Source: a virus. Taken from it: a stretch of DNA of 64,000 bases. Positions 14,538-64,000 of this stretch are shown in pieces. The notes below the pieces were generated by a model. It did no database searches. It saw nothing but the letters and a program-made list of their open reading frames with translations, and was not told the DNA's origin. Positions within the stretch are counted from its first letter, which is position 1. Each line of letters starts with the position of its first letter. The stretch is taken from IMG/VR virus record IMGVR_UViG_3300045988_075249, positions 64,001 through 128,000 of that record, one strand, 5' to 3'. The position numbers and the translations under genes were made by a program.

Positions 14538-14568
14538 TATTTTTCTACGGTTAAGTTCTGTATCTTTC

Positions 14569-14667
14569 GGTCCCGTAACTACAACAACTCGAACAACGTT
14601 TGCAATGTCAACAACGATGGATCTGCGAACAACAACAACTACAACAACAGCAACGGGCTCGCGCCGG
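14569..14667 (+). repeat. DGR template repeat (TR), A-rich, encoding a run of Asn-like AAC codons.
   Basis: Identical to VR except at adenines. Lies between avd and the RT gene, as in canonical DGRs. Confidence 0.85.
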
Positions 14668-14978: not shown

Positions 14979-16196
14979 ATGTCTGAAATAAAACAAGATA
15001 CTGCTTTCGAGCGTTTTTGTAGTTTTGACGCTATGTATGAGGCGTCTTATAAGGTATGTCGAAACGTTCGATGGAAAGATAGTACAATTAATTTTGAAGA
15101 GAATAGGATAGAAACAATTTTAAAAACAGAAGCTGACCTGCGAGCGTGTGAATACGAACAGCTTGTGTTTAGTTGTTTTTCGATAATCGAACGAGGCAAA
15201 CCAAGAGATATAAGAGCGTGTCATATCAACGACAGACTGGTACAAAATGCGTTATGTGAACAAGTTTTGCTACCAGAATTAACTCCTAGATTTATCTATG
15301 ATAATTGTGCAACCCTAAAAGGAAAGGGAATAGACTTCGCTCTGGAAAGAGTTAAGAAACATCTCCAATAGGCTCATAAAGAGTATGGGTTAGGAAAAGA
15401 TTTTTATGGATTAAGAATTGATATACAGAAATATTTTGATTCTATTGACCATGAATCTTTAAAGAAAGCAGCTAAACGGCTAATAAAAGATAAACTTGTT
15501 TATTAGTTATGTTGTTACTTGATAGATACATTTTCTTTTAAGCTAACAAAAGACACTTCGCCTATACCCGGTAAAATATATTACACAAGTAAGCGACACA
15601 AGTATGAAAGAGTTAATGTTACTCATTTCTAGCCTGGTCGTAAGTATTATGAATATGAAAGAAAGAGCCTGGGATTAGGAAGTCAAACGTCACAATTATT
15701 CGCATTGCTAGCATTGAACGAAATTGACCACTTCATAAAAGAAGAGTTACATATTAAGTATTATGGTCGTTATATGGATGATTTATACTTGCTCCATAAT
15801 GACAGTAAATACTTGGCCGAATGTGAGAAACAAATAGAAATTCGCTTAAATAAACAAGGATTAAAGATGAATAAGAAGAAAACTACTATCACTAGAATTT
15901 CTCCTATTCACGCAGATGGCGAACGCCACGCTCCTTTTAAATATTTAAAGTGGAATTTTCATCTCACAGAAACTAATCATATAATACAACTTCCTTTCAA
16001 GAAAAAAGTAGCTCATCAGCGCAGAAAACTAAAGAAAATGTAGGCTTTATGGTTAGATAATAAAATTTCAACTGAAGAAGTTTAGAAATCTTATTAGGGC
16101 TGGAGGGCGCATATTTCTAAAGGAACTTGCTTTTATATAATTCAGGACATGGACAATTATTTTCGTTCATTATTCAAAGGAGTTGAAATAAAGTAA
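14979..16196 (+). CDS. DGR reverse transcriptase. ~6 TAGs.
   Basis: RT motifs across in-frame TAGs: YGLRIDIQKYFDSIDH, GLGSQTSQLFALLALNEIDHF (DGR-type SQ variant), YGRYMDDLYLL (YxDD). Track ORFs 14979..15371 and 15705..16043 are in the same frame. 1218 nt = 406 codons to TAA 16194-16196. Confidence 0.85.
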
Positions 16197-30571: not shown

Positions 30572-33500
30572 TTATTCTTTTCTTCTATTCGCCCATTGAG
30601 TAGCATCATCCGCCAAACTACGAATAGCATCTTGAATTTCATCAGAAGATGTCGCATTGGGGAATTCAACTCGTTCAATATTTATATTTGGCTAAACCAC
30701 ATTATCTGTCGGCGCAATCTAGGTATTAGTTCCCAATCTAGATGCCATAATACTAGAAATAGATAATGCATTTCCATCAAGAGTTTTCTCAATAGAGGCT
30801 ATAAAACTAGGTCCAAAGGCTCTCATAGCAGAGACCGCCGCCAAGATATTTTTCGTATCCTCTTGATTTAAAACTAGCTCTTTTTCATGCAAGAAAGCTA
30901 ATTTAGCATTATCAAATTCTCCGGTATATCCTCCAGTATCGAAACCACTTATCTAACTTTCTTTTAGCCATCCATAGGCAGAATTATTAGACTGCACATG
31001 GATTGGATATGGTCTACCCTTAGCTATATTTGTTATTCTAACCTTTTTACCTGGACCACGTCTACCAGCAGGATCAGTACCATAAGAGTCATGATAATAA
31101 GTTCCGCCAATATAAGTAACTTCGTCTCCTACTTCGGGGATTCCATTACCCCCTCCGGTTCCACTGCTAGAAGACCCACTACCACTATTACCTGAGTTAC
31201 CTTTATCAGTATCAGAAGATTGACTTGAATCAGAAGAAGGTAAGTCATCTTTATCTATACTTCCTGCACTTTCTATTGTGCTACCAGCAGCTCTAGCGGC
31301 TTCTTCAAGCGCTCTTATATATTCTCTGACTGAATCGGCCATATCTAAATACTCTTGACTTAAATCTTGAATAGTGCTTATCTATTCTAACATCTAAGTA
31401 ACGGCATTTGATCCAGCCTCAGAGCACAAATCAGTAGAAGTTGAAACATCGTCGATATAATCTTTTAAATCATCGAGACTTGTTCCAGTCTAATCGGCTA
31501 CTCCAGAAACAGTAGTTTGATAATCTTCCATCGCTCCGCTAGCTTCATCCATTGCATTAGATAAAAACTCTTCAAAGTTACCAGCATTAGCGGTCATATT
31601 GGCTAAGTCTTTCGCAAATACATTATCAAATAGGTCAATAAGTTTTGTATTACTTCCTACTATATCTTGAATCTACTCGTTATCTGATAGTAACAAATCA
31701 ATAATGCTAGAGCCAGAGTTAGCTATAATATCTTGAATTTCTTGACTTGTAATTCCAGTTAGGTCACTTACCTCGTCTCCCGCAACAATAGCCATATCAA
31801 TTAAAGCTTTATTGCCGGCTTCGGTCATATCCTAAATAGCGATCTATTTTTCGTTCTCTAGGTCCTTAACCTTCTGCGTATAATAAGAATAGATTTCTTG
31901 CGCGCGGGCAGATCTTTCTTCATCAGTCAAGGTCATATCAGAATAGATTTCTTTTATCTTATCTTGACATTCTTGCCAAGTAGAAATAATCTCTCCTGTA
32001 ACATCCTCTACCTACTGCTTTGCTATATTATACCACTCATTCTCCGCATCAAGCAAATTCTATTCTGCGTCAGCTATCTGGCTCGCATCTGCGGTGTATT
32101 GATAATTCCAGTTACCTTGACTATCTCTCACTAGTCTAAGTTGATTTTTCGCATTTTGAGCATCTTCAAGTGCCATCTAAGCCTAAAGAACATTATACTT
32201 AGCTTCGAGAATTTCTAAATCGTATTCAGATAAGGTATTGTTCTCTCTACGTATATCAATTTCCTCTTGTAGCTATTTTAACTAATCTTTCATCTTAGAG
32301 TTAGTAGCCTTATCAATATCCTGTTGTAGTTTATTATACCAAGAAGATACCTCATACGCTTCATTTACTTTATCTAAATATCTATCCTCTTGCTCGATAT
32401 AATGATCAAACTTGTCTTGTAGTAGATCTAATCCTACTCCGCCAGAAACAGCCTATCCAAATTCATATACTGCTCTCTCAATAGCTTGAGTATACATCTC
32501 CTAGGCAGTTTCCATAGCGGCTTGCGCAGAACTTAACATAGCCTCTTGTGCTTCATTATATTCTTCTAGTAGAGCATCTCTATTAGCTTTTAGACCATCA
32601 TATGCAGGATCCGTTTCATCTCCGCCTAATGCGTCTAGTGCAGCTTGAGCTTCCAATAATTCTTGACGGATTCCATCGTACCATTGTTTATTTAGCTGCG
32701 CATTGGCGACCTGAGCCTTCATAGTTTCTTCGCTTACTTCCTGAAGCTACTCAAATCCTTCCTCAGTCTTATATGTAACTCCCTAAAGAGCATATAGTTC
32801 TTTGATAAGTCCTAGAACGGATTCATTATGGTCAAGCTAATCAGTAAAAGCTGCAAATCTTTCTGACGCGGCATCTAATGCATCTGGTAGCATTTCTTCA
32901 AGACCTTCTACCCAATCAAGCAAAGCTTCCGCAGTAGAAATCATTTTACCTTGCAAGTCAGATAACTTGCTTACAATCTCATCAATATTAGTCGCATCTG
33001 TGGCATTAGCTAATTCTTCCTGATAACTTTTAAGGGCTTCTTCATAGCTCTTGATGATTTCCTTATTCTCATTCATACTGTTTTCATCAATACGAGCGAC
33101 TTCCATTCCATGAGTTAGTTCATCACCAAAAGATTCTGCTATTTGTCTTGTTAGCTCATTAACCGCATCTTTAGCATCTTTTATATCTATTGCAACTTCA
33201 AGTTTATATTCAATCTAATTTAATCTATTATCTGCAATATTTCTTTCTAGCTCTTCTTGCTCATCTTTTACATCTTGAATCTTGTCAAGAGTTTCTTCAT
33301 ATTGAGCTAAAGCGTCCTAACGAGCCTAGAATAATTCATCAGCAACTTCTTTTTGTAATTGCCAACTATCATATTCTGCCTATCTAGCCTCCTATTCATC
33401 TTTAGTAAGACTGCTAAACATTAATAAGAAAGCGTTGTAATCGGTTAAGAAGTTATTATTATAATCATCAACAATAGATTGAAGAACGTCTTGATAACCT

Positions 33501-36500
33501 TCAATTTCTCCATTTTCATCAAAAGTAAGAGAATTGTTGAATAATCCTTGAAGGTCTGATCTATCTTTCTCAAGATAGGTCTCAGCCTCATCAAGCATCT
33601 TATTATAATTAGCTTGCTGTTTTTCTAACTCTTGAAGCTCTTTCTAATAAGCCTATAATTTCTTCGCTCCATATGCTCTATCTATATTATTACCAATATC
33701 ATCTAATAAATCATTCTAATTCTCAATCTCACGAGTTATTTCATGGTATCTATCTTCTATATCTTCAAGAGTTTTTTCATCTTCGGCATCATATTTTGTA
33801 CCTTCGTTATCTCCGCCAGAATCTTTATTTCCAATATTGTCTGCTGCTATTCTATTCGGATCTAATGCTCCATCAGGATCAAATGCAAATGGCTCCTAAC
33901 CATAATCAAAAATACCATTCTATCCAGATCCCGTACCCTCAGAAGATAAATATGAACCAGCTTCTTTTAGAGCATTAGTAAAATTACCAATAGCATCTCC
34001 GCCCTCGCCGGAAATTTTTAATCCTAGAGTGGGAAGCTCAAAAGGAAGATTCGCTTTGCCAGCTAGCCAATCATCTATCTATAATTTTCCCCATGATTTT
34101 ACATATGGAGTAAAACCTAAACCATATTCAAAATTAGAAATTAAATCTCCTAGTGCTGTTAGAACAGCCCCAGCCGCCTATGAAGTTGAGCTAATTGTAT
34201 TAGCACTCTCGGACATAGTAGAATTAATAACGGCTCCAGCGATACTAGCATCAGTGGACATTGCTTGCATTAAAGCATCGGCGCTTGTATCTAGTCCATT
34301 TGCTAGCGTTATTCCCTAATTAAGAACACCCTAGAGAATCCTTTTATAAGATTCGTTATTAGTCTATTCTAGTCCTACGAGCTATTGTCCAATACTTGAT
34401 ACCATTGCCTAAAATTCTGTCGCAGTAGTATCGAAATTATTATCAATGGTAAAATCTATCGCTCCAAAGCTATCAGCATAGTTTAATAAGTAATCGTAAT
34501 TATCTACTAAACTATTTACAATTCCCATCATGTCTTGGGCATCGCTCACTTGTTTTTCCCAAGTATTTAAATTAGATATATCAGCCATGGCTCTGGCATA
34601 TTCTTCCTCAGAAATTGTAGTTTGATCTACTCCATCTTTGAGTTCCCAAACTCCGTCTGTATTTTTTGTAATATTCTAATTTAATTTAGACTAAGCCGTA
34701 ATTAATGCTTTCGTGGCAGCGATTGTTCCCTCATAGTAATCATCCATATTGATGGTTCCAGATTTAAACTTTTTATTTAAATCTATCAGTCCATCCCCTA
34801 TAGACCCGGTTGCAGCGACCAAAGTAGCTTCATATAAATCAGTTTCTTCTATATTATCGTCAATTTCTTCGTTTAATCTATGAAAGCCTGCATCTATATT
34901 ACTTAATCTTTTATTAATCGTATCAAAATATTCTTGGGCAGATATTGCCCCCTCCTGATACGCTTTCGCATTATCACTAAGGGCCTATGTTCTCTCTTTA
35001 AACAATTCTACATCAGTTTCACTTGTAAACGTATAATCATTTATTGCATTTGAATCACTGGCTCGCGATACTAATTCATCCCACATATTAATATAATTCT
35101 AGAGATAATCAGTATTTACCCCATATTTTTCTTTCATAGATTCTATTGTAGCATCAAGAATTTGCTCTTCTTGTCGTTCAGAATCTAAAAATGTCTAAAG
35201 AGACTAATTTGTTAGTTTATACGCATCTCCAACTTTAACAATATACTAAGCATATCTTTCATCTGCATTAATGAGTTCTTGAACTTGATCCATGGTTAGA
35301 TAGCCTTCTTGATCCTTATATGACTATAAGGCAGATTCAAGAGCACTCTAACTATTATTTAATTCTTCCAATATAGATTTTAAGTCGTCTATTCTCTTTA
35401 CATTTATATTTATTTCATTAATTTTATAATTATCTAAAAATTCCTATAATTCTTCAACCGTATCAAAATTATCTATATTGACACCCATAAGGATTTCCCA
35501 ATCCTCATTTGATAGAGAATCAAAATCAAAATCACTAAATTTACTTTCTACTTTTTCCTTTGCTTCATCTACTCTGCTATCTATAAAAGTTAAAAACTCA
35601 TCTACGCTGACTCCAGCTAACATTAATTCATTTTTAATGGATTCTGTTATCAAACCAGAGGCTGCACTAATATCACCACTAGCCAAAGTGCTATAAAGCT
35701 AAGTAGAAATCTATTTAACTGATTGGCTATCTAAAATTGGTTTTAATATAACCTCTTCATATTCACTTTGACTGCCATAAAGATTTTTACGAATAAGAGA
35801 TAACCGCTCCTGCATTGAAGCTATCATTTCTGGATTATACTCAATAACCCCGTCAGTAACAGATTTAATATATGCAGCATAATCATCTTCTGCTTGCTAT
35901 ATAGCTTCAGAATTGTCAGTTACCCACTGTGCCGTAATCTATTCATTTTGAGTAACCCAATCTTGATACTCTACTAAGTAATCACGATAGGCATCAGAAT
36001 TTTTATCAAGGCCCTAAGTAACACTATTAAACCAAGTGTCTGCATCTACGTACTAATTTTTATAAGTATATCTATTCTATTCAAGTACAGATTGAGCATT
36101 TGGATCATTTAAATCCATGCTCTATTCTAACTCTTTAAACCAGCCCTAGTCTCCATTGTATTCATTCCAACTTCTCCACTAGGTTAAATCTGGTCCTCCT
36201 GCCAAACCCTTAGTAGATTTATCATAATTCTCTTCGATAGTTTTTGCCTAGGCTTTTTGCGCTTCTTCTGTTAACTTCTCTTGTAACTCAACCTATCTCT
36301 ACAAAGAAGATTCTGCCTATTTAAGTTTTTCTAATTCTTCTTGTTCGACCATACTTAAAGAATCCTAATTATTTAATTCTTCTATTCTATCTTTCGTTGT
36401 CTATAATTCAGAATTTAAAGATTCTAATGCAGATTTCTAATCCTCATAAGCCTAGGTAGCACTAGATATTTTTTCTCTAGCCTCTTCTTCCGTAACAATA

Positions 36501-39271
36501 ATGAGAGAAATAACATTAACAAGTAAGGTTACTCCCAAAGTGATTAACCCAATAAGTGGTAAAGCAGTTGAGATAGCCGCACCAACAGTAGTAATACCAG
36601 CAGCCGCAGTTTTAGCTGAAGCTCCAACTGTTAAATACGATATTGCAGTTAAACTATTTTGTAATGCCTGCTGTTTAAACAAGGTAGAGATTGTTGGTAA
36701 TAACATTCCAAAGTTAGTAAGAATAACTGTAAAATCTTCAACAGTAAACTCTCCCTCTTTCACAGAATTTGTAAAAGTAGAGAACATGGAATTAATACTT
36801 GTCATTCCCATTGTAACTTGCGATAAAGTGGTTCCTACTTTAACCAATGTCTCAGCCCAGTCTAAAGTAGCATATCTGTTATTCTTTAACCCCTCACTAA
36901 TTTCTTTTGTTTTCTACTGTAATAATTCTAATCCCTATCTAAAAGCCTCAGCACTAATTTCATTATTCTTAAAAGCTGCTACAAGACCACTTAGATCATT
37001 TTTAAATTTAACAGAACCATCACCTAAAGAAGTAATAACTCTATTTAATGCAGCAACGTCTGATTCTGCCCCTTTTAATGCTTCCTAAAACTACTAAGAG
37101 GTAGTAAGATATTCTATTATCTCCTAATTTGTTGCATCTTGAGCACCTTCAAAAAGATTTAGGCTTCTTACTAAATTAATAGTTTCTTGAGAGATTTCAT
37201 TGGTTCCAGAACCAACTAATTTCTATACTTGCTAAAACTCAGAAAGACTTACGCTCGCCACTTTTAATTTGTCAATTAAACTCTAAAGGGCTTGCTAATT
37301 TGTCTTTGAACTATAGAGAATTTCTGTTTCTATGTCCTCATAAAAAGAAAATTTATTTTCATCTTCTAACACAAGCGCCGATAGTAGATTATCCTTCCAT
37401 TTTTTATTGGGAACTAAACGCTCAGACAAACTATTTGTATAAGCTGTAATAAGTTCATCTGATTTGCTAACCTACTACCCAATTAAATTAACCTATGTCT
37501 ATAAAACCTTTACTCTATCTAAATCTTGTTGTAAAATACCAGCCTAGCGCTCAGATAGTTGTGTGGCCGCAGCGGACGCTTCTCCTTCAAGCTAAACAAT
37601 CTAAGCTTGAGTATTTACCATCTATCCCTAAATAGTATTATCAAGTGCGGATTTCGCGATAATATCAGCCATCTATGCGGCTTCAGTTCTCAAAGTTTGC
37701 GCTCTATCCTTTTCTCTCTATCCGATAATACCAAGATTAGAAGCAATATCTCTCATTCCTTGCGCAATCTTATCACCAAAAGCCTTATTCATCAGTAAAG
37801 CAGTTGTTGCTAAAACGCCAGACATTCCGCCTAAACCATCAATAATATCAGCAGTTGTACTTAAAATAGGACTAAGAACATCATCTACCCCAATATAAAA
37901 ATCAGGATTTATTAAACTATCATAAATATCTTCCGCGGATGCTCTTACTCTATCTCTTGCCGCCTCCCAAGATTCAGCATAAATATCTGCTTGTTCTTGT
38001 AGAGATCCTTCTGCTCCATAAGAACTCTCCAAATTTTCCTAGAAGAAATCCCAGTTATCCATAAGAGCAATAAGACGAGTATATTGACGTACTCCAGCCA
38101 CAGTCTGTGCTAATGCAATCTATTGATCATTAGATAGAGTTTCCCATTTCTCTCCCATTTCATCTAATAAAGTATCCATAGTCTTGATTTCTCCATTAAC
38201 GTCAAAGATGTTAATTCCAACTTTATCAAGAGCCTAAGAATATTTATTTAGAGTAGTTCCATCATCAAGTGTTTCTCCAAGATTTAAGCCCTGAATACGT
38301 GCAAATAATGTTCTAAATGCAGTACCTACAGTATTCGTAGATTCACGAGTTGTAGCAGTAACAGTAGCAAGCGCAGATGCGGCATACTCATAACTCAAAC
38401 CTACCGTCTCTGCAACTGCGGCAAACTGCTAGATACCTTCTGAAATTTCATCAGAGCTTGATGCAGTATCTGCACCTAAGCGCACCATGACGTCTGCATA
38501 ATACTCAAGACTTTTACTTCCATCATAGAAGTTATTCCATACCGCAGTTAACTAGTCAGATGCAGTCTAAGCACTAACACCGGCGGCGTTTGCCATTTTT
38601 ATAGTAGTTTCAGTTCTATCTAAAACTTCCTATTCAGTAAGACCCTGTTGATAGTAAATCAGAGCTGCGTCAGTATAATCTACTGTAGTTGTGCTCAATG
38701 CTTTAGCCGCTTCATTAGCCTACTTAGCAAAAACAGCCATATCCTCGGCAGAATTTTCAGTAACTATACGAATGTTTGTCAGAGATTCATTTAAATCTTT
38801 TGCATAACCATAAGCTGTCTCTAAAGAGCCAATAAAACCCTATAAAGTGCTTGCTGTAATCTACCAACGAACCGTATTTTTCATTGTAATCCACAAATCA
38901 GACATTAACTTATTAGTTCTGATTAACGGAGTTTCCGCCGCCATAATAGCCTGAGAAAGATTTAAGAATGTTTCTTGCCCCTAAATTCCCAGTTTGCTTA
39001 GTTGATTATAATAATCTGTTAAAGTCTTTCCGCTTTTTACTAAACTATCATTAAAAGCAGTCAAATCTAACTTACCTGAATTTCCATTAGTAGCCATCTA
39101 AAGATTACGGCTCAATTCAAGGGCCGCCAAAGATGCCTACTGAAGTTCACTAGAAATAGATGGCTAATTGCCTAATTTCTATAAACTATTTATAACTTCA
39201 TTAACAGAGGTTTTTAGCTGACTCGCGTCAGCGGTAAACCCAATCTAATAGTTTAATCTTTTATTAGCCAC
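30572..39271 (-). CDS. Tape measure protein, ~2899 aa, with well over 100 in-frame TAG codons.
   Basis: Seven track ORF pieces (37718..38032, 36452..36847, 35444..35686, 33392..33598, 32837..33106, 32501..32722, 30953..31342) all share one frame (top position = 1 mod 3). 8700 nt = 2900 codons from GTG 39271 (RBS aaaggagg) to TAA 30572-30574. TM segment cluster, long coiled coils and the C-terminal ..GFDTGGYTGE..AKLAFLHEKELVLN motif are typical of tape measure proteins. Confidence 0.8.
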
Positions 39272-55754: not shown

Positions 55755-56093
55755 ATGTTTTTCGATACACCCTATTCTGAATTACCAAAACGAGCATAGT
55801 ATTACTTTAACATTTTAATTATAAGCATAGCAGTATAGCCAGAAGTTCTAACAGACATACTTGGACATAAAAACACTGTTGACTTATGGGATGTTCAAAA
55901 TATCAATAATGCAAGACCAACGGCTTTGCATATTTATGCTTCATATAATTTAGATAGAGATTCTGATTATGAAATATGTTGTATCCCACATTAGGTTTTA
56001 GAAATAACGCCTAATAACAAAATATCATTCTATGATATGATTGATTATGATACTGATGATCCATGGGGGCTAGAACCAGATGCAATAGATTAA
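55755..56093 (+). CDS. Hypothetical protein. 3 TAGs.
   Basis: RBS gggagg plus ATG 55755. 339 nt to TAA 56091-56093. Confidence 0.45.
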
Positions 56094-56871
56094 CATAAAA
56101 GAATATTTTAAACAATAGAAAGATGAATTGCGGCAGTCCGATGTCAAGCCATCATTGACCATAATTGATGCAACTAACGGGGATGCCGGAAATTAGATTT
56201 ATATATAGAAAAAAGTAGACGACTTTGATGAATTAGGATGGCCAGTAAGCGTGATTAAAGTTCCAGAACACTGGACTCCCGCAGATTTAAATAATTACAT
56301 AAATAGTATAGATACTGATTGTATTATAGCACAAATGCCACTAAGAGATTCATTGAGTTCTTTTTCTATTGATGTAATTCCTACGATAAAAGACTGCGAC
56401 GGTTTAACTTCTTCTACTCTTGTTTTACCGGCAACGGTAAGAGGAATAGTAGACTATCTTGATGACTGTGGTTTTAAGTATGAAGGTAAAAGTGCTTTAA
56501 TATTAGGTAGAAGTAATATAGTTGGTAAGCCAATGGCGAAAGAGTTGTTGGCGAGAAATATGACTGTATCTATCTGTCACAGTAAAACAAATGTAAATGC
56601 GAAGCTTTATTTAGCAAGAATAGCAGATTTAGTAGTATCCGCAGTTGGAGATTTTACTTTGACAAGAGAGGCTTGCCCTCACGCTATTGTTGTTGATGTT
56701 GGTATTCGTAGAAATTAGGCGAATTTTATTCAAGGCGATTTTGTTGAACTTGAAGATATTGCAAAGAGAAATGAAGTGTGGTCAACTCCTGTGCCCGGAG
56801 GGGTGGGATTATTGACTAGATTGGGGTTGATGAAAAATTGCTTATAGTTAGCGAAACAGGCGCGAAGATAA
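56080..56871 (+). CDS. folD: Bifunctional methylenetetrahydrofolate dehydrogenase/cyclohydrolase. ~7 in-frame TAGs.
   Basis: Track ORF 56251..56718 is the C-terminal domain (..GRSNIVGKPMA..VVDVGI..). Read-through gives the N-terminus MQ*INIKEYFKQ*KDEL..AGN*IYI*KK.. and C-terminus ..VPGGVGLLT..KNCL*LAK. These align with E. coli FolD AQQ, ASQIY and TLQAC, with * on Q each time. Confidence 0.8.
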
Positions 56872-57230: not shown

Positions 57231-57375
57231 TTATTGTTATCTTAGATTGCATCAATAGTATGATCCAATTAGATGCGATGATTCATGCGAATATGCAAAA
57301 GTAATAAAAGAAAACAAAGAGTTAAAGTAGAAGATCGAGGAATTAAAAACTCAACACACTTTATTTGAAAAATAA
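57214..57375 (+). CDS. Small Cys-rich protein (53 aa). 2 TAGs.
   Basis: ATG 57214. 162 nt to TAA 57373-57375. Confidence 0.3.
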
Positions 57376-57433
57376 AATAAGACAATTATTTAATTTTGCC
57401 CAACGGCGTTTTTATAAAAGGAGGCCGCGATGA

Positions 57434-57958
57434 CAAAACAAGAGCGCAATCAAGGCACGAGCGCATTATGAAGATATTAAAACTAGACTTGCCGCAAACA
57501 CTAAATTATCTATCGAGCGCACATATGTATATAGTCCAGATTCTTTTACACAGCATGAATCCGGCAATCAGAAACCAGCTTTTACTCTAACAGATATGGA
57601 TAGCGTATTCAACTTATCTGACAATGGTAGAACAGCAATTCTTAACTATGCCAGTTATAAAAGTCCTGGTGGTTTCTTCCTAGAAGGTAGTCCTGCGCAT
57701 AGATACCAGAGTGTGAGTAAAAGCGAGAATGATAGAGTTCTTGAAAATCGAATTCACTTTATGTATCAGATTGCTGAGGAAAACGGTGTGGAAAATCTAG
57801 TCGCGGGAGCTTGGGGTTGTGGAGTTTTTATGCAGGATCCGTACACGGTCGCAACCTTACTCATAGGCGCAGCACGCAATTATAATATTCCAAATATTTA
57901 TTTTGCAATTCCCAGAATTTTAGAGCATAAACAGTTAATTATAGCTAGAAAAGATTGA
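57434..57958 (+). CDS. Macro-domain protein (TIGR02452/DUF2263-like). N-terminal region is out of frame with its RBS-associated ATG at 57430.
   Basis: Track ORF 57596..57958 has 54 further protein-like in-frame codons upstream to TGA 57431-57433. RBS aaaggagg plus ATG 57430 is in the +1 frame and stops after 13 codons. One fewer A in the A4 run at 57435-57438 would fuse them. Confidence 0.5.
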   Translation, partial: QNKSAIKARAHYEDIKTRLAANTKLSIERTYVYSPDSFTQHESGNQKPAFTLTDMDSVFNLSDNGRTAILNYASYKSPGGFFLEGSPAHRYQSVSKSENDRVLENRIHFMYQIAEENGVENLVAGAWGCGVFMQDPYTVATLLIGAARNYNIPNIYFAIPRILEHKQLIIARKD

Positions 57959-58451
57959 AAAGATTCTTTGGGGAAGCAAAGAAGTGGTTCGGGAAAGAGA
58001 TGGCATTATGGATATAAGTCTCGATACAGACTTATTCCATGATTGGAGAAACTAAAGTTGTTTGCCGCGCGAAGAATAAAGATTACTTTTTGATTTATGA
58101 TGAGCTGTCCTGAAGGGACTGGATTTAGACCAATGGAAGCTGAGGAGATTTATACCATTAAGGGATATTTTTGCCCTAACTGTAAAGGTTAAAAGTTTAG
58201 CCTTTCATCTTTTTTTCGTTATTGAGATTGAAAGTGCGATTTAGATTTTGAAATGGCGTGGCAGAACGAATTTGCGAAAAAATTTCCAGTTTTTCCCAAA
58301 ATACACCCTCCCCTTTCACATGGTAAAGTGCTGAAGTGTAGTTGGCCTCTTTCGCTCGCTAAAGTATGAAAGTAAAAAGCCCCGCCCTAAAGGAATACGC
58401 GCGCGTAAAGAATTTGTGCAAAAGAGAGAGAAAGAAATTTCAAAAAAACTA

Positions 58452-58480
58452 TTGACAAGTGGGCGTTTTGGTGGTAAACT
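58452..58480 (+). promoter_or_regulatory. Sigma70-like promoter TTGACA-17-TAAACT overlapping the palindrome CTGGACTTGTCCAG (58479-58492).
   Basis: Seen in sequence. Confidence 0.45.
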
Positions 58481-58551
58481 GGACTTGTCCAGTAGAGGAC
58501 AGGGCAAAACTCAATGTACCTTGAAAATCAAAAATTTTTCAAAAAAAGGTA

Positions 58552-58580
58552 TTGACAAGCCCACTAAAGTCTGATACAAT
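58552..58580 (+). promoter_or_regulatory. Sigma70 consensus-like promoter TTGACA-17-TACAAT upstream of gene 58633.
   Basis: Seen in sequence. Followed by the conserved leader ..gaaagggagtaaaagaaaATG. Confidence 0.55.
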
Positions 58581-58632
58581 ACAGACAGAACAAAAGAGAA
58601 CCACACCACAAAAAGAAAGGGAGTAAAAGAAA

Positions 58633-59010
58633 ATGAAAAAAATCGACTTTACCAACGATGACAGAAAAGTCATCATGGAATACCTGGCCGCTAAACAGGC
58701 AGTAGCGGCGGCGGAGGTCGCAGAGAAAGCGGCTAAGGCTAAAGCGAAAGAGCTTTTCACCCGGTTAGGGAAAGAGTTCAAGACCACAGATAAGACCTCT
58801 TATCTGTACGGCACAGTCCAGATAAAGGGCGCCGCTTATGCGGTGGTATATAAAGAGACTACTGCTAAAGGAGCGATAGACTGGAAAGCCTACGCTATGG
58901 CGTTAGGTGGAACAAAGGCAGAGGCGGAGCAATACCGCAAGCGTCCGACGGTCAGAACCTCTCTTGATTGGGCAACGAAAGACCAGCAAAAAGAACTCAA
59001 TCAGCAGTAG
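58633..59010 (+). CDS. Hypothetical early protein (125 aa). Ends at TAG 59008-59010, directly followed by a terminator hairpin. Read-through would reach TGA 59089-59091.
   Basis: Track ORF. Strong RBS. Confidence 0.55.
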   Translation: MKKIDFTNDDRKVIMEYLAAKQAVAAAEVAEKAAKAKAKELFTRLGKEFKTTDKTSYLYGTVQIKGAAYAVVYKETTAKGAIDWKAYAMALGGTKAEAEQYRKRPTVRTSLDWATKDQQKELNQQ

Positions 59011-59011
59011 T

Positions 59012-59050
59012 TTATAAACCCTGCCTTGCAAAACCCAAGGCAAGGCAGGG
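59012..59050 (+). terminator. Hairpin ccctgccttg caaaaccc aaggcaaggcaggg.
   Basis: 12-bp stem seen in sequence. Confidence 0.5.
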
Positions 59051-59080
59051 TTATAATAATCAAAAGAAAGAAGGCTGTAT

Positions 59081-59231
59081 TATGAGGTATCAGTTGCAGG
59101 TTTTAGTGGGTGACAAAATGCGATACTATGAGCCGTCTACTGTTGCACACGCAAGATGGAGAGTAGACCATGAGCTTGTCAATCCTGACTATTGGATTGT
59201 AGACCTGTCTACCGGCGAAGCTATCAAGTAA
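59081..59231 (+). CDS. Hypothetical small protein (50 aa).
   Basis: ATG 59081 inside track ORF 58968..59231. Confidence 0.4.
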
Positions 59232-59286
59232 CCATATACCACAAGAAGCTGACCTAACGGCTATACGGGGAGAAAGGATAAAAGAT

Positions 59287-59673
59287 ATGTCTAACTTCAT
59301 CAAGTATTACACCAATCCCACCTTTAATAAGCCTGAGTTCGTGCGTGTTCTCCGTTACTCCATGAATGTGAAGGCGGCCGCTGTGGATGATGGTATCATC
59401 CTTGACTTAGACGCTTTTAATGCTATCTCTAAGGCCGTCATGCCACATTGGGCCTTTATCAATGCACGGTATATCAACAGCAAGCTTCACACTCGTCCTG
59501 CCTCTCTTGACGAGTATAAGGCCGCTCTGGATAAGGACACCACAGAACAGCTTTATATCATTCGGGATAACTATTATAATGAGTATGACAGGGTAACTGC
59601 CAAAGAATGGGATAGGCTTAATGCCGAAATCCCTGGACGGTATGACCTTCTGGGGAAGGAGCCTGCGGTATGA
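59287..59673 (+). CDS. Hypothetical protein (128 aa).
   Basis: Track ORF. Confidence 0.5.
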   Translation: MSNFIKYYTNPTFNKPEFVRVLRYSMNVKAAAVDDGIILDLDAFNAISKAVMPHWAFINARYINSKLHTRPASLDEYKAALDKDTTEQLYIIRDNYYNEYDRVTAKEWDRLNAEIPGRYDLLGKEPAV

Positions 59674-59880
59674 GAGTGCTACGGTATATAGGAGGCGGCC
59701 TTTGCGCCGCTCTCCTTCTCTGGATTGCTTTGAGCTGGGCTGACATAGTAGCAGATAACAACTATCCAAATCCACAGCATAGTGAGTATAACTTCTTTAC
59801 TGTGATGTTTTAATATTCTATCCGGTAATCTGCACAAAGATTGCCGGATATTTTTGTGCACTTTCCCATATTGACTTTTC

Positions 59881-59925
59881 GCCGGGCCGCCAGCGTGCGC
59901 CGCGGCCCGAATTTTTGTTTGTTCG
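59881..59925 (+). terminator. GC-rich terminator (cgggccgc ..gcgcc.. gcggcccg plus aatttttg).
   Basis: One of four paralogous GC-rich hairpin terminators (59881, 61461, 62858, 63766). Confidence 0.5.
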
Positions 59926-59991
59926 GCAGTTTCAACAATTATATGGCCAAAAGTTTGTGCAATCTGCCGAGAATTTTTCTCCCGAAATCGC

Positions 59992-60020
59992 TTGACATTC
60001 CTTTGTGGGTATGGTATATT
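59992..60020 (+). promoter_or_regulatory. Promoter TTGACA-17-TATATT.
   Basis: Paralogous to the promoter at 61573-61601 (shared ..aaatcgcttgac..ggtata.. context). Confidence 0.5.
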
Positions 60021-60086
60021 ATACTTGTCCAGAGAGACAGACCACAAAAAGAATTTGAAAGGAAGTAAAAGAAATGGTGTGACGTT

Positions 60087-60305
60087 GTGATTTTGTTCCG
60101 GCAATACTCTTTCTGTCTGGAAGAGGATGCGGCTATTCAGGTAATCGACAGCAATACCGGCGCACATTTCCGGTTTGACAAGGAATGGAAGCTCCAGCTC
60201 GGCGGTGACTTTTATGGCGATGACCTCAGCGCCCTGTTCAAGAAGCAGGTGACTGAGATTGAAATGAGAGAAGAAGGTGGCGTTAATATCTACATTAACG
60301 CATAA
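60087..60305 (+). CDS. Hypothetical small protein. Start uncertain (GTG 60087; ATG 60074 is out of frame).
   Basis: Track ORF. Confidence 0.4.
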   Translation: MILFRQYSFCLEEDAAIQVIDSNTGAHFRFDKEWKLQLGGDFYGDDLSALFKKQVTEIEMREEGGVNIYINA

Positions 60306-60359
60306 GAAACCTGCGGGAGTGGAGGTCTATGACTTCCACTCCCCATGATAAAAAATTCT

Positions 60360-60596
60360 ATGGAGGTCGATTTCCGCATGGGAAAATATGTAGTTTCGTT
60401 TAACTCTCTTGAGGATCGAGCAAGTTTCGAGTGCTTAATTAGTCAGATGGGCGCGGACTGGTCTTTATCGACTATTGATAATCTTCGCGGTGCGTGGTTG
60501 TTGATAACTCCGCATAAGTCCAGTGCAGCAGAACATCTTGTCGGATTCTTTACAGAAAAGGGGATTATCAATGACTATCGAGAGACTTCCGCGTGA
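60360..60596 (+). CDS. Hypothetical small protein.
   Basis: Track ORF 60345..60596. ATG 60360 is better placed relative to the RBS. Confidence 0.4.
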   Translation: MEVDFRMGKYVVSFNSLEDRASFECLISQMGADWSLSTIDNLRGAWLLITPHKSSAAEHLVGFFTEKGIINDYRETSA

Positions 60597-60702
60597 ATAT
60601 CCTATTGGTTCCACCGTTTGGACTAATAAGGGATATGGAACAGTTTTGGTAAGATTGGGGAAATATCACCTTGTCTGGTTGCAGAGGCTGGGGCTGGCAT
60701 AA
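60571..60702 (+). CDS. Hypothetical 43-aa protein, followed by terminator ~60685-60725.
   Basis: ATG 60571 overlaps the upstream gene. Hairpin gggctggcataagtcagccc plus T8. Confidence 0.3.
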   Translation: MTIERLPREYPIGSTVWTNKGYGTVLVRLGKYHLVWLQRLGLA

Positions 60703-60976
60703 GTCAGCCCTTGCTTTTTTTAAAAAAATATTCTATAATATATATAGAAAAACAAAGAAAGGAGTTTTCTAATGACCTTAGAAGTGCTGAAAGCTCTTGC
60801 GGTCATTCTGGAGTTCTGTTTGAACTAGGATTCTTGTAAGAATTGTCCTATGGCTCAGTTCCGCCAGAAAATGCCTTGCGAGTGGTAATTATTCCCTCCG
60901 ATTGTTACAAATCGGCGATTCCCGTGATGGAGTCGTTTTTCGCACGAACCTAGGTCACTAGAATTTATTTATCAAA

Positions 60977-61213
60977 ATGCAAGAAACTACTTTCTCAAGG
61001 AAATTGGATTCAAGTGGGCGCATCATGATTCCCGTAAGACTACGAGAGTAGATGGGCCTTGTTTCTGGTCAAGAATATTATTTCACTACTATGGTAAAGG
61101 ATGGCAGAAAATATATTTGTATCGACTGTGGCTCCGTTGACAATACTTCTCTTGAAGAAGCTATGCGAATTATACAAGCAAATGGAATGAAAATTGTTGA
61201 AAGTACCGATTGA
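60977..61213 (+). CDS. AbrB/MazE/SpoVT-type swapped-hairpin DNA-binding protein. One in-frame TAG.
   Basis: ..RKLDSSGRIMIPVRLRE*MGLVSGQEYYF.. matches the AbrB-N fold. 237 nt ATG 60977 to TGA 61211-61213. Confidence 0.5.
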
Positions 61214-61460
61214 CTTCCCGAAATTCTTATGTTAAAATTAAGTTATCAAAAGAAAGGAAGTTGAGAGATATGTATGAATTTGAGATTTTGCTTGAAAATG
61301 GCTCGACCGACAATATCTCTGGTTATTCCTATGAAGATGCTCTTTTCCGGTCTCGACGTAAACCTGAAGAGGTTGTAAAAGTTTTAAATCGAGAATATGT
61401 AGATTGAGATTTTCCTCCCAAAATGGGAGGAATTTCTTTTCCAATTCAAAATATATTGTT

Positions 61461-61505
61461 CAGCCGGCCGCGCATGAGCGCAGCGGCCGGAATTTTTTGT
61501 CAAGA
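61461..61505 (+). terminator. GC-rich terminator (ccggccgcgc atgagc gcagcggccgg plus aattttttg).
   Basis: Seen in sequence. Confidence 0.5.
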
Positions 61506-61572
61506 GGCAATTTGCACAATTTTTGGATCAGTTTATTGGTGAAATTGACGAGAGGAAATTTCCCAAAATCGC

Positions 61573-61601
61573 TTGACTTTCCCCTCCCGTTCTGGTATAC
61601 T
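61573..61601 (+). promoter_or_regulatory. Promoter TTGACT-17-TATACT.
   Basis: Seen in sequence. Conserved leader before ATG 61654. Confidence 0.5.
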
Positions 61602-61653
61602 TAGACCATCAAGAGGGGAGAACAAAAGCCCTCAAGAAAGGGAGTAAAAGAAA

Positions 61654-61893
61654 ATGAAAAGCTATGTGGTTATGGCTGATAATCGTGAGAAGATTATCTG
61701 TGTATCTGATGATCTGCGGTTAGCTCGTGGCGCGGGCTGGGACTGGCTGAAAAAGCAATATAATCCCGATAACTGGCAGGATATTCTGGAGGATATGGAC
61801 TACGAAAGCGAAAACGACCTGCAGCATGATATGCTCCTTGGGGCCTGCTGGGAAGATTTCGACATGGAAATTATCGAGGTGGAGAGGGTGTAA
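61654..61893 (+). CDS. Hypothetical small acidic protein.
   Basis: Track ORF. RBS aagggag. Confidence 0.5.
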   Translation: MKSYVVMADNREKIICVSDDLRLARGAGWDWLKKQYNPDNWQDILEDMDYESENDLQHDMLLGACWEDFDMEIIEVERV

Positions 61894-61920
61894 TCCCTCT
61901 CCACCATAGGAGAAACAAAT

Positions 61921-62064
61921 ATGACAACTTTTATCATAATCATTCTTGCCATTTGCCTAACGATCCAGTATGTAGTGGCTCTGGTAAAAGAGCATTTCTG
62001 GCTTGCTATATTCTTCACGGCTGAAATCGCAATGTTCGGATATATTATAAATACTCCGATGTAA
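61921..62064 (+). CDS. Small hydrophobic (membrane) peptide, 47 aa.
   Basis: RBS ataggag plus ATG 61921. Not in the track (<60 aa). Confidence 0.35.
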   Translation: MTTFIIIILAICLTIQYVVALVKEHFWLAIFFTAEIAMFGYIINTPM

Positions 62065-62068
62065 AGGG

Positions 62069-62097
62069 TATTGACAAACCTAGCCCTTTATGATATA
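62069..62097 (+). promoter_or_regulatory. Promoter TTGACA-17-TATAAT.
   Basis: Seen in sequence. Confidence 0.55.
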
Positions 62098-62148
62098 ATA
62101 ACACTATCAAGAGAAGGAAAACTCTATAAACCAGAAAGGAAGCATATT

Positions 62149-62391
62149 ATGACTACTCTGCCTAAGATGACCCAGGAGGATAAGGATGGCCTGATTGCCC
62201 TTCATATGGCGATACGTACGGTAGACCGCCATTCGGCTGATTCAGCTTTGGTTCAATCTCTGGGGAAGTTCTTGCTTGAGGATGCCTGTACTCCAGATGA
62301 TGCGGCCGACATTTTGAAGGCAGTCTTTGACGAGGAGGCCGACCGCGTATCCAGTGAGGTTGACATTGACGCCCTTCTGTCTATGCTGTAA
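62149..62391 (+). CDS. Hypothetical small protein.
   Basis: RBS agaaaggaag plus ATG 62149 inside track ORF 62071..62391. Confidence 0.45.
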   Translation: MTTLPKMTQEDKDGLIALHMAIRTVDRHSADSALVQSLGKFLLEDACTPDDAADILKAVFDEEADRVSSEVDIDALLSML

Positions 62392-62453
62392 ACTGGATAA
62401 AGGCGCCTGGGCAACTAGGCGCCTACCATAAAATTTAGAAAGGAAGTATAAAG

Positions 62454-62810
62454 ATGAAAGTTATCGGCATCACTCGGAGGATGGATGATCTGGGACGCGT
62501 GGTTATCCCCAAGGAGGTGCGCCAGTCTCTCGGAATTAACGAGGGCGATTTTCTGGAGATTGTAGGTACTGACCGGGGCCTGCTTATGCAGAAATGCGGC
62601 GAAGCCTATGGGAATGAACCCGTCCCGAAGGGAGTGGAAACCGAAGAAAAGGACAAGATATTTGTTTTCCGGGATCAGGATTACATGGTTCATCTGGTTT
62701 CACTTTCCAAAAAGGCAGAGGAACTTTGCAGGTGGCTTGAAGAGCTGGGCCTGCTGGATGAAGATATGTGGTGGGAGGCTTGTAGCGACAATGCAGAGGA
62801 AAATTTTTAA
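62454..62810 (+). CDS. AbrB-family transcriptional regulator.
   Basis: ..ITRRMDDLGRVVIPKEVRQSLGINEGDFLEI.. AbrB-N domain. Confidence 0.6.
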   Translation: MKVIGITRRMDDLGRVVIPKEVRQSLGINEGDFLEIVGTDRGLLMQKCGEAYGNEPVPKGVETEEKDKIFVFRDQDYMVHLVSLSKKAEELCRWLEELGLLDEDMWWEACSDNAEENF

Positions 62811-62818
62811 AAGATTTG

Positions 62819-62895
62819 CCCCTTTCGGGGCATTTCTTTTTGTCTTTTTTCGCGGGCGGACCGCGCAGGATGGGCGCGGTCCGATTTTTTCTTCT
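62819..62895 (+). terminator. Tandem terminators (gcccc tttc ggggc plus T-run; cggaccgcgc aggatgg gcgcggtccg plus T-run).
   Basis: Seen in sequence. Confidence 0.55.
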
Positions 62896-62985
62896 ATTGT
62901 AATGTTGCACAATTTTTGACTTGAAATCTTGTGCAAAATGTCATCTTGCAATTATCCTTAAATTATGGTATTATTAGTACAGAAA
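62885..62985 (+). repeat. ~100-bp promoter/operator module, copy A. It holds the TTGCACAA-N16-TTGTGCAA inverted repeat (62905-62912 / 62929-62936) and promoter TTGCAA-17-TATTAT (62946-62974).
   Basis: ~90% identical to copy B at 63798-63893. Confidence 0.6.
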
Positions 62986-63001
62986 GAAGGAGGGACACTA
63001 A

Positions 63002-63226
63002 ATGAAACCTTCAAAGTTTATTCGGCCTAATGAGTGTTTAACTGTGGCTGAAATCTACCGCCGTCAATTTGGTGGTACTACCACCACAGAGAATTATGGG
63101 GTCTATATGCAAGCTATTCTTTTGCGCGACCCTCTAATTTATGTGGATTATACGTCAATGCCTTATAAGGTATATCGGCATAAAAATTTCTTTGAAAAAC
63201 TTGTTGACAAGATAGGCAACAGGTAG
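63002..63226 (+). CDS. Hypothetical small protein.
   Basis: Track ORF. RBS gaaggaggg. Confidence 0.45.
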   Translation: MKPSKFIRPNECLTVAEIYRRQFGGTTTTENYGVYMQAILLRDPLIYVDYTSMPYKVYRHKNFFEKLVDKIGNR

Positions 63227-63254
63227 TATAATAAAACAAAAGGAGGTTATATAT

Positions 63255-63719
63255 ATGATAACTAAAAAAATGCTCTGCTTTGATATGGACGGGACAATTG
63301 CAGATCTATACGCAGTCCCCAACTGGCTTGAAAAACTCCGCGATGGAGACCCCAGCCCATTCCGAGACGCTGCCCCCATGTGGGATATGAACGCCCTCCG
63401 AAATGCGCTTCTAAACGCAATTAGTAACGGGTGGGAGGTTCGAGTTATTACATGGTTGCCCCCTGAAAGCCCCCCTGAATATAAGAAAGCAGTCACAACC
63501 GCCAAAAAGGAATGGCTTGCAAGGCATAAATTTCCGGCCCATAAATGCCATTGTGTGGCGTATGGAACAACTAAAGCTAAATGCGTATTCCGCAGTTTTT
63601 ATGAACCGCCGTTCATTCTCTTTGATGATAACGACAAAATTAGAAACGGCTGGCATTTAGGGGATACCGTAGACCCCCAAACTACAAACATTATTGAATA
63701 TATCAACAATCTGGACTAA
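63255..63719 (+). CDS. HAD-superfamily 5'(3')-deoxyribonucleotidase (NT5C-like).
   Basis: ..FDMDGTIAD.. HAD motif I. Overall NT5C-like sequence. RBS aaaggagg. Confidence 0.55.
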   Translation: MITKKMLCFDMDGTIADLYAVPNWLEKLRDGDPSPFRDAAPMWDMNALRNALLNAISNGWEVRVITWLPPESPPEYKKAVTTAKKEWLARHKFPAHKCHCVAYGTTKAKCVFRSFYEPPFILFDDNDKIRNGWHLGDTVDPQTTNIIEYINNLD

Positions 63720-63721
63720 AT

Positions 63722-63805
63722 AAAAGCGGGGTGAAAATCCCCGCTTTTATTTTTTTTATAACTTGGCCGGCCCGCGCACAAGCGCCGCGGGCCGAATTTT
63801 TCTTC
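63722..63805 (+). terminator. Tandem terminators (agcgggg tgaaaat ccccgct plus T-run; cggcccgcg cacaagcgc cgcgggccg plus T-run).
   Basis: Seen in sequence. Confidence 0.55.
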
Positions 63806-63893
63806 TATTGTAATGTTGCACAATTTTCAAGCAGAAATCTTGTGCAAAATGCCATCTTGCAATTATCCCGAAACTATGGTATTATTATCATGT
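63798..63893 (+). repeat. Promoter/operator module, copy B (TTGCACAA 63816-63823, TTGTGCAA 63840-63847, promoter TTGCAA-17-TATTAT 63857-63885).
   Basis: Paralog of copy A. Confidence 0.6.
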
Positions 63894-64000
63894 CAGGAGG
63901 GAGAGGCCAAGAAATCAAGAGGTCGCGAACTCTTAGAAAGTAGAGGAAGCAAAGAGAAAATAACTAAATTCCGATTAGCTATCGGGAGGATTAAGTTAAA

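Follow-up and report, generated by a model that had tools for sequence, protein, structure and literature searches.

A probable standard-code early arm built of terminator, dyad and promoter cassettes in a TAG-recoded siphophage of gut Clostridia

We analysed 64 kb of a virus genome of roughly 130 kb (positions 64,001 to 128,000 of IMG/VR record IMGVR_UViG_3300045988_075249; hereafter the window), together with 5 kb beyond its end. The subject is a block of small genes at 58.3–64 kb, in which a GC-rich hairpin, an inverted repeat (the dyad) and a promoter recur as a cassette. We consider it likely that the phage is an SPbeta-like siphophage of gut Clostridia, with a genome of ~130 kb and late genes that read TAG as glutamine, that this block is its arm written in the standard code and probably expressed early, and that the arm is made of insulated, exchangeable modules carrying a dyad shared with the host. 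Early arms of recoded phages, cassettes like the promoter-early stem-loop (PeSL) elements of other phages, and repeated phage operators are each of a known kind; their combination here, with a dyad common to host and phage, appears not to have been described before. An initial annotation, made from the sequence, had described a GC-richer block of small genes with repeated promoter-terminator cassettes and a recurring operator motif. Its overall observation is confirmed, and most of the features it listed are present.

Code, composition and cassettes of the arm

The block differs from the rest of the window in composition. GC content in 1-kb windows ranged from 0.29 to 0.41 over 1–58 kb (about 0.34) and stepped up at 58 kb to 0.41–0.46 over 58–64 kb, in agreement with the shift that the initial annotation had placed at ~58.3 kb. 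It also differs in genetic code. Open reading frames (ORFs) of at least 100 aa cover 30.8 kb of the whole window under code 11 vs 79.5 kb with TAG as a sense codon, and a 2899-aa ORF of tail-gene length (30572–39271, − strand) contains 102 in-frame TAG codons. Essential late genes are intact only with TAG as sense, which is the test for code 15. The window is thus that of a TAG-recoded phage (code 15), in which TAG is read as glutamine outside the block. The initial annotation had rightly seen the block as distinct and had overlooked this recoding of the remaining window. The recoding contrast accounts for most of the difference it noted.

Codon counts place the boundary at the block. The late genes (17.3–55.7 kb, 12594 codons) use 23.7 TAG per 1000 codons, or 51% of their Gln codons, with a GC content at third positions (GC3) of 0.26. 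The left arm (0.6–17.3 kb, 4932 codons) has 11.2 TAG per 1000 and a GC3 of 0.27, and the 56–58-kb region (526 codons) has 13.3 per 1000 and a GC3 of 0.29. The 13 high-GC genes of the block (1099 codons) have a GC3 of 0.51 and no sense TAG, Gln being written CAG. About 12 sense TAG codons would be expected in these genes at the lowest background rate, so that their absence is far from chance. TAG instead serves as the terminal stop of 2 of the 13 block genes, vs none of 51 elsewhere (0/26 late, 0/22 left arm, 0/3 at 56–58 kb). For the first of the two, at 58633–59010, one relative (contig L366) has TAA in place of the TAG, and in another (L365) the read-through extension is interrupted by TAA. 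TAG therefore marks a true stop position here, and read-through of the TAG at 59008 to give a conserved extended protein is ruled out by this comparison. The FolD-like gene directly left of the block (56041–56871) contains seven in-frame TAG codons.

In other code-15 gut phages (PMC10607447) recoded stops concentrate in late genes. The same holds here, with TAG as Gln in structural and packaging genes and a presumed early arm free of sense TAG. What sets the present phage apart is that its boundary is also marked by a twofold rise in GC3 and by two genes in which TAG is a real stop. We propose that the avoidance of TAG and the host-like GC3 would allow the arm to be translated by naive host ribosomes, before phage suppressor tRNAs appear. 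The genome would thus be divided, at the level of sequence, into a host-code, host-composition arm with host-type promoters and an AT-rich body that uses TAG as Gln. ORF totals were also tried as a measure of recoding on other cassette-bearing viral loci, and were non-discriminating on loci so short.

As to its organization, the arm would consist of short transcription units, all rightward and arranged in series. The 32-bp inverted repeat TTGCACAA(A)-N14/16-(T)TTGTGCAA, intact or decayed, would head each module. A host sigma-A-type promoter would begin 9 nt downstream of the repeat, or 29 nt in the case of two cassettes, and its spacer often contains TCCCGAAA. Next would come a conserved leader in which the ribosome-binding site is strong, then between one and four small genes and the gene's own terminator. 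A second, very GC-rich intrinsic terminator would then insulate the next module, the dyad of which lies 22 nt after the hairpin.

Formal prediction, as the initial annotation had suggested, gave more promoters and terminators than expected: 29 promoter-like sites at 56–64 kb vs 18.7 ± 3.7 in shuffled sequences, and 15 terminator-like sites vs 6.3 ± 2.7. Between 58452 and 63232, eight sequences of the + strand and no sequence of the − strand match the sigma-70 consensus at 10 or more of 12 positions. The earlier statement that almost every small gene has its own promoter and terminator was too strong, as the 16 genes fall into ~9–10 predicted transcription units.

The four paralogous terminators that had been proposed are confirmed by both repeat analysis and folding as a four-copy family of GC-rich hairpins (starting at 59887, 61468, 62861 and 63772; −20 to −22 kcal/mol each). 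Each has a GC-rich stem-loop directly before a T-tract on the transcribed strand, as in an intrinsic terminator, and each is predicted to act as a second terminator behind the gene's own (at 59819, 61412, 62817 and 63718). With two copies beyond the window, the hairpins number six. In an alignment of 12 cassettes from seven contigs, the hairpin arms, the T-run, both half-sites, the −35, the TCCCGAAA spacer motif and an extended −10 are conserved. The hairpin positions are 95.8% paired and compensatory changes occur in 6 of 10 pairs, a result matched by none of 500 shuffles, while slid controls collapse. This covariation argues that the structure is under selection, as for an intrinsic terminator.

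Spacing within the cassettes is also conserved. In five cassettes the dyad begins 22, 22, 22, 22 and 19 nt past the 3′ end of the hairpin, and in the cassettes that we label C1 to C4 a promoter follows the hairpin and T-run at 62–110 nt. In C3 and C4 the dyad is perfect, and a TG-extended TTGCAA-17-TATTAT promoter follows 9 nt later. In C1 and C2 it has decayed (two and three mismatches), and the promoter, a stronger one, is 29 nt downstream, roughly two turns of the helix further away. L366 has a perfect C1 dyad, and a lone half-site at 58414 (C0) corresponds to a near-perfect N16 dyad in L365 and in a third relative, L364. A duplicated promoter/operator module had been reported at ~90% identity over 100 nt; the duplication is real (62834–62976 and 63745–63887), but its copies are 81% identical over 143 nt. 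The leader said to be common to three genes was also found, its copies at 58595, 60031 and 61616 being 73% identical. A further motif, TCCC[GA]AAA, occurs six times on the + strand of the window, each time within the block (58294, 59980, 61216, 61416, 61561 and 63866; 58.29–63.87 kb), in or beside promoter spacers, and is kept in the spacer of the 12 aligned cassettes. It may be a second protein site.

The dyad in viruses and Clostridia chromosomes

Counted together with its complement, the 8-mer TTGCACAA has eight sites in the window compared to 2.1 ± 1.2 in shuffles, of which 0 of 100 reached eight. Seven of the eight sites are in the block (58414, 59955, 61512, 62905, 62929, 63816 and 63840). 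The earlier claim of at least seven copies, above the expectation for this composition, is thus upheld, with the correction that the site placed at 61505 is at 61512. The two perfect inverted repeats also exist as described, but they do not overlap the −35 elements (62946 and 63857), ending 9 nt upstream of them. The dyad thus occupies roughly −45 to −76, on the upstream side of the −35.

When 2.9 million viral contigs were scanned for TTGCACAA-N14..18-TTGTGCAA, the dyad proved to be widespread. Among the 130 matches listed, the spacer is exactly 16 in 101, that is, in more than 100 viral contigs. Most of these N16 dyads are intergenic and beside promoter-like sequence, some between divergent promoters, while 24 of the 101 are inside a long reading frame. 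About a quarter of those listed have a terminator hairpin 13–21 nt away. The control pattern, with both half-sites in the same orientation, returned only repeats in coding sequence, and its N16 excess consisted of 24-nt repeats.

Among the listed matches with a strong flanking promoter, the gap from dyad to −35 is 8–9 nt in 39 of 83, 18–19 nt in 12 and 29 nt in 2. A separate peak at 24 nt (14 of 83) is off the 10-nt step, and we take it to reflect one group of related high-GC contigs. The gap pattern is one of helical phasing, with the dyad centre near −60, −70 or −80. Class I CRP sites and the sites of phi29 p4 are likewise symmetric and located upstream of the −35 at whole-helical-turn distances. 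The dyad resembles them in its symmetry, its widely spaced half-sites and its whole-turn offsets, but has no homology to them in site or protein. By analogy, its position would suit an activator or regulator that contacts RNA polymerase (alpha subunit) better than an occluding repressor. We therefore propose that a symmetric regulator docks at the dyad, on a single face of the helix.

The dyad is also present in bacteria. A scan for the exact N16 form, with one genome per species, gave at least 120 matches. Those listed are mostly from Clostridia (Oscillospiraceae, Acutalibacteraceae, Ruminococcaceae, Lachnospiraceae, Faecalibacterium), and the remainder are scattered over unrelated phyla, as chance would give. 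Isolates with a chromosomal dyad include Faecalibacterium intestinale CLA-AA-H281 and Anaerotignum neopropionicum DSM 3847. Genes beside the genomic dyads include PTS EIIABC, MFS_2 glycoside transporters, SBP_bac_5, MalK-type ABC ATPases, melibiase and LacI-type regulators. The inner flanks TTGCACAAA...TTTGTGCAA are common to the viral and the genomic sets. In four Clostridia contigs, ORFs of ~40 aa directly follow a dyad and consensus promoter (L299 1997–2122, L245 6786–6914, L342 2137–2265, L329 2926–3045), and in two of the contigs (L299 and L342) they are followed within ~200 nt by a gene of the melibiase-like or MFS transporter type. Such short ORFs may encode leader peptides that belong to a host regulon.

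A phage-encoded protein cannot explain sites in chromosomes, so that a conserved host regulator is the most economical reading, and the presence of the same dyad before sugar-transport genes of Clostridia makes such a factor the likelier binder; the AbrB/SpoVT-type proteins encoded in the block are still candidates. Phage promoters would then plug into the host factor, and the phage paralogs may compete with it or mimic it. The dedicated repressor regulon of the initial annotation is accordingly not borne out, as the dyad is common to more than 100 viral contigs and to Clostridia chromosomes, and sits upstream of the −35. As a tentative identification, TTGCACAAA-N14-TTTGTGCAA could be the operator of an uncharacterised global regulator of carbohydrate uptake in gut Clostridia (Oscillospirales, Lachnospirales), which several phage lineages, that of the present phage among them, would have placed, helically phased, before their first-expressed promoters. 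If so, the start of infection would be gated by the nutritional state of the host. The 32-bp dyad in any case offers a testable handle on a regulator of poorly studied gut Clostridia and on its coupling to early transcription in their phages.

To our knowledge, no site of Spo0A, Rex, CRP/FNR, CcpA, CodY, LexA, BirA, PurR or NrdR fits the half-site, its orientation and its spacing. A full-text literature look-up by the 8-mer sequence returned primers and unrelated sites only. A switch of the cI/cro type was ruled out, since a single HTH_3 protein was found among 106 ORFs flanking viral dyads.

Relatives, module exchange and alternative explanations

The arm does not end at the edge of the window. 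Contig L001, an independent assembly, is identical to the window across an 11.5-kb overlap and carries the GC-rich arm ~3.1 kb further, to ~67.1 kb on the parent contig. The extension contains a further hairpin-dyad cassette, a sixth hairpin, three to four tandem consensus promoters and more small genes, and beyond the arm L001 has AT-rich DNA and a set of tandem repeats. In L364, L365 and L366 the block is at the same place, with 64–98% identity to the window.

A more distant relative is the phage phAss-1, filed in GenBank under 'Caudoviricetes code 15 clade'. The large terminase subunit (TerL) of the window, recoded, is 44% identical to that of phAss-1. It aligns over 93% of its length with terminases of large siphophages, also matches the SPbeta-type YonF, and is adjoined by a YonG-type gene. 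In the complete 136-kb genome of phAss-1, 9 of 11 half-sites are within a terminal arm at 126.7–134.9 kb, whose GC content is 0.50–0.53 vs 0.35–0.37 in the structural genes. This arm is transcribed inward from the genome end, which its authors set with PhageTerm. As phAss-1 shares both the GC split and the motif, these are old properties of the phage group rather than a recent import. The phAss-1 paper has no mention of 'promoter', 'early' or 'terminator', and the regulatory cassettes of the clade are not described there. Megablast of the block against 50,697 phage records gave no match, and a more sensitive blastn gave one only, of 195 nt, to phAss-1.

These comparisons bear on the suggestion of an early or host-takeover region, which gains support by inference from host-type promoters that all point one way, from the lack of recoded codons and from phAss-1, where the homologous arm is located at the physical genome end. 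The idea of a mosaic module from a higher-GC donor holds in part: modules do exchange at the cassettes, but the presence of the arm in phAss-1 makes it a standing property of the clade.

What distinguishes close relatives is the insertion of entire modules where hairpin and dyad meet. L364 and L365 are 92–98% identical to the window, and colinearity with both breaks at 62887–62892, in the T-run of the third hairpin (T3). In L364, whose contig spans both sides, the break is occupied by a 1.1-kb insert. This insert has a dyad and promoter of its own, encodes a 131-aa protein and a SpoVT-like one, and includes a new hairpin; L365 contains the start of the same module, and the contig ends inside it. 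L364 also has an extra 475-bp unit at the 63718 terminator, bounded by terminator copies. In the more distant L366 colinearity is also lost at cassettes. We propose that the repeated hairpin and dyad sequences double as recombination joints, at which whole modules are gained and lost.

This arrangement resembles the PeSL cassettes of T4-type phages, promoter-terminator cassettes that are found at the joints of module exchange (PMC2839356, PMC4122927). As in PeSLs, a terminator stem-loop lies directly before a presumed early promoter, many copies are dispersed among small orphan genes in a variable region, and the cassettes coincide with the joints of indels and replacements between close relatives. 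The likeness is one of analogy only, without sequence homology, since by its terminase and YonG genes the present phage is an SPbeta/phAss-1-like siphophage and not a T4-type myovirus. The cassettes differ further in their extra conserved 32-bp dyad and promoter-spacer motif, and in belonging to an island of standard code within a recoded genome. Modular shuffling of the PeSL kind, described until now for T4-type phages, thus appears to act in a Firmicutes siphophage too. As strong insulated promoters, terminators and an operator, the cassettes are possibly useful parts for genetic tools in hosts that are hard to engineer.

A second known system is that of the SPBRE operators of the Bacillus phage SPbeta, which are read by the master repressor MrpR (PMC10516654). 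There too a short motif is repeated in intergenic, early promoter regions of a large SPbeta-type phage, and terminase and YonG-type genes are shared. The present dyad differs in occurring also in host chromosomes and in many unrelated phages. Identity with the 15-bp SPBRE (aaatacaaaaaatatgtata, read from five SPbeta promoter regions) was rejected, as the sequences are unrelated. Over the first 100 kb of the SPbeta record (134 kb in all), TTGCACAA shows no enrichment: seven sites are present, none of them in the five upstream regions inspected. No MrpR-like repressor was noticed in the 64 kb and the 5 kb of genome, and no homolog was looked for outside the window.

Could the dyad belong to the phage alone? 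A private regulon, in which an AbrB/SpoVT-type protein (62454–62810 or 60977–61213) binds as a tetramer to quasi-palindromic 8-mers 24 bp apart and shuts off or times the early promoters, is in our view rather unlikely, despite several points that favour it. The 118-aa protein at 62454–62810 is, by sequence, a true AbrB/SpoVT-type member of PF04014 (34.4 bits vs a cut-off of 24.7), and its N-domain is 60–78% identical to those of bacterial AbrB/SpoVT proteins (source names: AbrB family, stage V sporulation protein T). The 78-aa ORF at 60977–61213, read with TAG as Gln, matches weakly (PF04014, 18.3 bits, cut-off 24.7; MraZ, 21.2 bits, cut-off 23) and also matches PHROG 4681 (E = 7e-8), and the relatives encode a third, SpoVT-like paralog within the same block. 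The two dimeric DNA-binding heads of an AbrB tetramer would suit separated half-sites. AbrB-like ORFs occur at 12 of 120 dyad-bearing viral loci listed vs none of 115 control loci, but these 12 are probably one related phage group and not independent, and the fetched DNA of the other 108 has no AbrB gene. Identical dyads precede chromosomal transport genes in many Clostridia, which such a regulon would leave unexplained. Moreover, Bacillus AbrB is not known to recognise the motif, and a single Bacillaceae genome is among the matches listed.

The origin of the arm allows two further readings. Its composition and lack of TAG could mirror a higher-GC, standard-code donor phage from which it was recently imported. 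The GC3 and codon contrast, the demonstrable movement of modules at cassettes and the existence of similar cassettes in other viral contigs of GC 0.37–0.45 are compatible with this. However, even phAss-1, distant as it is by its TerL, has a GC-richer terminal arm with most of its half-sites, and the block is syntenic in L366, where the DNA is only 64–84% identical. The arm is thus old within the clade despite the turnover of its modules, and a recent import is unlikely. That the GC jump near the end of the window reflects host DNA beside an integrated prophage, or an assembly chimera, is extremely improbable: L001 is identical where it overlaps, the three other relatives carry the block in place, AT-rich phage DNA resumes on the far side of the arm in L001, L364 and L366, a homologous arm is present in the complete phAss-1 genome, and the genes are small orphans and not housekeeping genes.

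Several observations weigh against our preferred reading of a standard-code early arm with a host-shared dyad. We infer early timing from the type of the promoters, from codon content and by analogy. Nor is the code boundary a sharp one, since a small island of lower GC (60.77–61.4 kb) interrupts the block and has two in-frame TAG codons, one of them inside the AbrB-like 78-aa ORF. No tRNA gene, and hence no suppressor tRNA, was found in the 64-kb window; phAss-1 has three tRNA-Sup-CTA genes. The decayed C1 and C2 dyads may be dead. As to the binder, a Pfam scan of the 106 ORFs flanking viral dyads gave no common domain, and the case for a host regulon draws on the genome matches listed, with some chance ones in unrelated phyla among them.

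Layout of the block and neighbouring features

All genes and promoters of the block listed here are on the + strand, and most of its genes are small orphans with no family match. The block opens with the lone C0 half-site TTGTGCAA (58414–58421, + strand reading) and two tandem strong promoters with A-rich upstream tracts, TTGACA-17-TAAACT (58452–58480) and TTGACA-17-TACAAT (58552–58580). The first copy of the leader, with a strong Shine-Dalgarno sequence, follows at 58595–58638 (copies 2 and 3 are at 60031–60074 and 61616–61659) and leads into the first gene (58633–59010; 125 aa), which ends in TAG and has no in-frame TAG. The three other small genes of this unit (59082–59231, 59287–59673 and 59670–59813) have no family matches and no TAG. 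The unit closes with its own terminator hairpin at 59819–59850, which is overlapped by a near-dyad, CTGCACAA-N16-TTGTGCAC, with 1+1 mismatches (59830–59861).

The first GC-rich hairpin, T1 (59883–59909; −20.0 kcal/mol), has a T-run behind it and is followed after 22 nt by the degenerate C1 dyad TTCAACAA-N16-TTGTGCAA (59931–59962) and, 29 nt past the dyad, by the promoter TTGACA-17-TATATT (59992–60020), with TCCCGAAA just upstream at 59980. Three small genes (60087–60305, with a GTG start, 60345–60596 and 60571–60702) and a terminator (60690–60711) complete this unit. At 60074–60089 the ATG expected after the leader opens a mini-ORF of two codons (ATG GTG TGA), and the 72-aa ORF starts at GTG 60087 in a different frame, which could be a case of re-initiation or a decayed start.

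The lower-GC island (60772–61407) contains an ORF with an in-frame TAG at 60826 (60772–60888), the AbrB-like 78-aa ORF (in-frame TAG at 61049), a promoter with TCCCGAAA within its spacer (61210–61238) and an ORF at 61270–61407. A gene's own terminator (61412–61432) precedes the second hairpin, T2 (61464–61490, then a T-run; −20.9 kcal/mol). The degenerate C2 dyad TTGCACAA-N16-TTGGTGAA (61512–61543) is 22 nt past T2, and the promoter TTGACT-17-TATACT (61573–61601) is 29 nt past the dyad, with TCCCAAAA at 61561. Downstream are genes at 61654–61893, 61921–62064 and 62149–62391, a perfect consensus promoter, TTGACA-17-TATAAT (62071–62099), and the 118-aa AbrB/SpoVT-type gene.

The own terminator of that gene (62817–62832) is followed by T3 (62857–62883, then a T-run; −21.9 kcal/mol) and, 22 nt on, by the perfect C3 dyad TTGCACAA-N16-TTGTGCAA (62905–62936), 9 nt before the −35 of its TG-extended TTGCAA-17-TATTAT promoter (62946–62974). 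A 74-aa gene with a TAG stop (63002–63226) comes next. A consensus promoter (63204–63232) overlaps its 3′ end and precedes a 154-aa gene (63255–63719) with weak PHROG matches to 5′-3′ deoxyribonucleotidase and polynucleotide kinase and its own terminator at 63718–63752. The last cassette in the window consists of T4 (63768–63794, then a T-run; −21.1 kcal/mol), the perfect C4 dyad TTGCACAA-N16-TTGTGCAA (63816–63847; again 22 nt past the hairpin and 9 nt before the −35) and a TTGCAA-17-TATTAT promoter with TCCCGAAA within its spacer (63857–63885). The ~130 nt downstream of this promoter (63892–64000, L001 11440–11630) have no convincing gene, with a 25-codon frame only and no ribosome-binding site, and a further consensus promoter lies past this stretch, beyond the end of the window (L001 11567). 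The C4 promoter could give a small RNA or be the regulated part of a regulated-plus-constitutive tandem. Rfam at gathering thresholds reported no RNA family anywhere in the window.

Past the window, two consecutive ORFs of L001 (13790–14200 and 14250–14606) have good ribosome-binding sites and no ATG, GTG or TTG start, with ATA after the site; by eye, the second resembles a GIY-YIG/T5orf172-type domain. The AT-rich, non-coding region that follows (L001 14700–16580, ~3–5 kb past the window end) contains about seven CCGATCGG palindromes and, at the contig end, tandem catggtattgtcagaataccatgaaat repeats, and may be a replication origin or packaging region. Left of the block, at 57300–58200, a PARG-like gene (254 aa) and a PTH2 gene (145 aa) are intact in L364 and L365, and of these the window has only a gapped remnant (~85% identical) with a 120-aa ORF at 57596–57958.

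In the early arm of phAss-1 (L123 6620–6745), just upstream of the dyad cluster, there is a tRNA-like sequence with a T-arm-like stretch and CCA, for which ARAGORN made no call. At the left end of the window, a 729-aa ORF (606–2795) looks by eye like anaerobic ribonucleotide reductase (NrdD); in phAss-1 an ORF of the same length, annotated as anaerobic ribonucleotide reductase, lies between two suppressor tRNA genes. The window also encodes a complete diversity-generating retroelement (12156–16196), with the variable repeat (13846–13947) at the 3′ end of the ORF 12156–13961, the template repeat at 14569–14670 and the reverse transcriptase ORF at 14979–16196. All 22 differences between the variable and template repeats are at template adenines.

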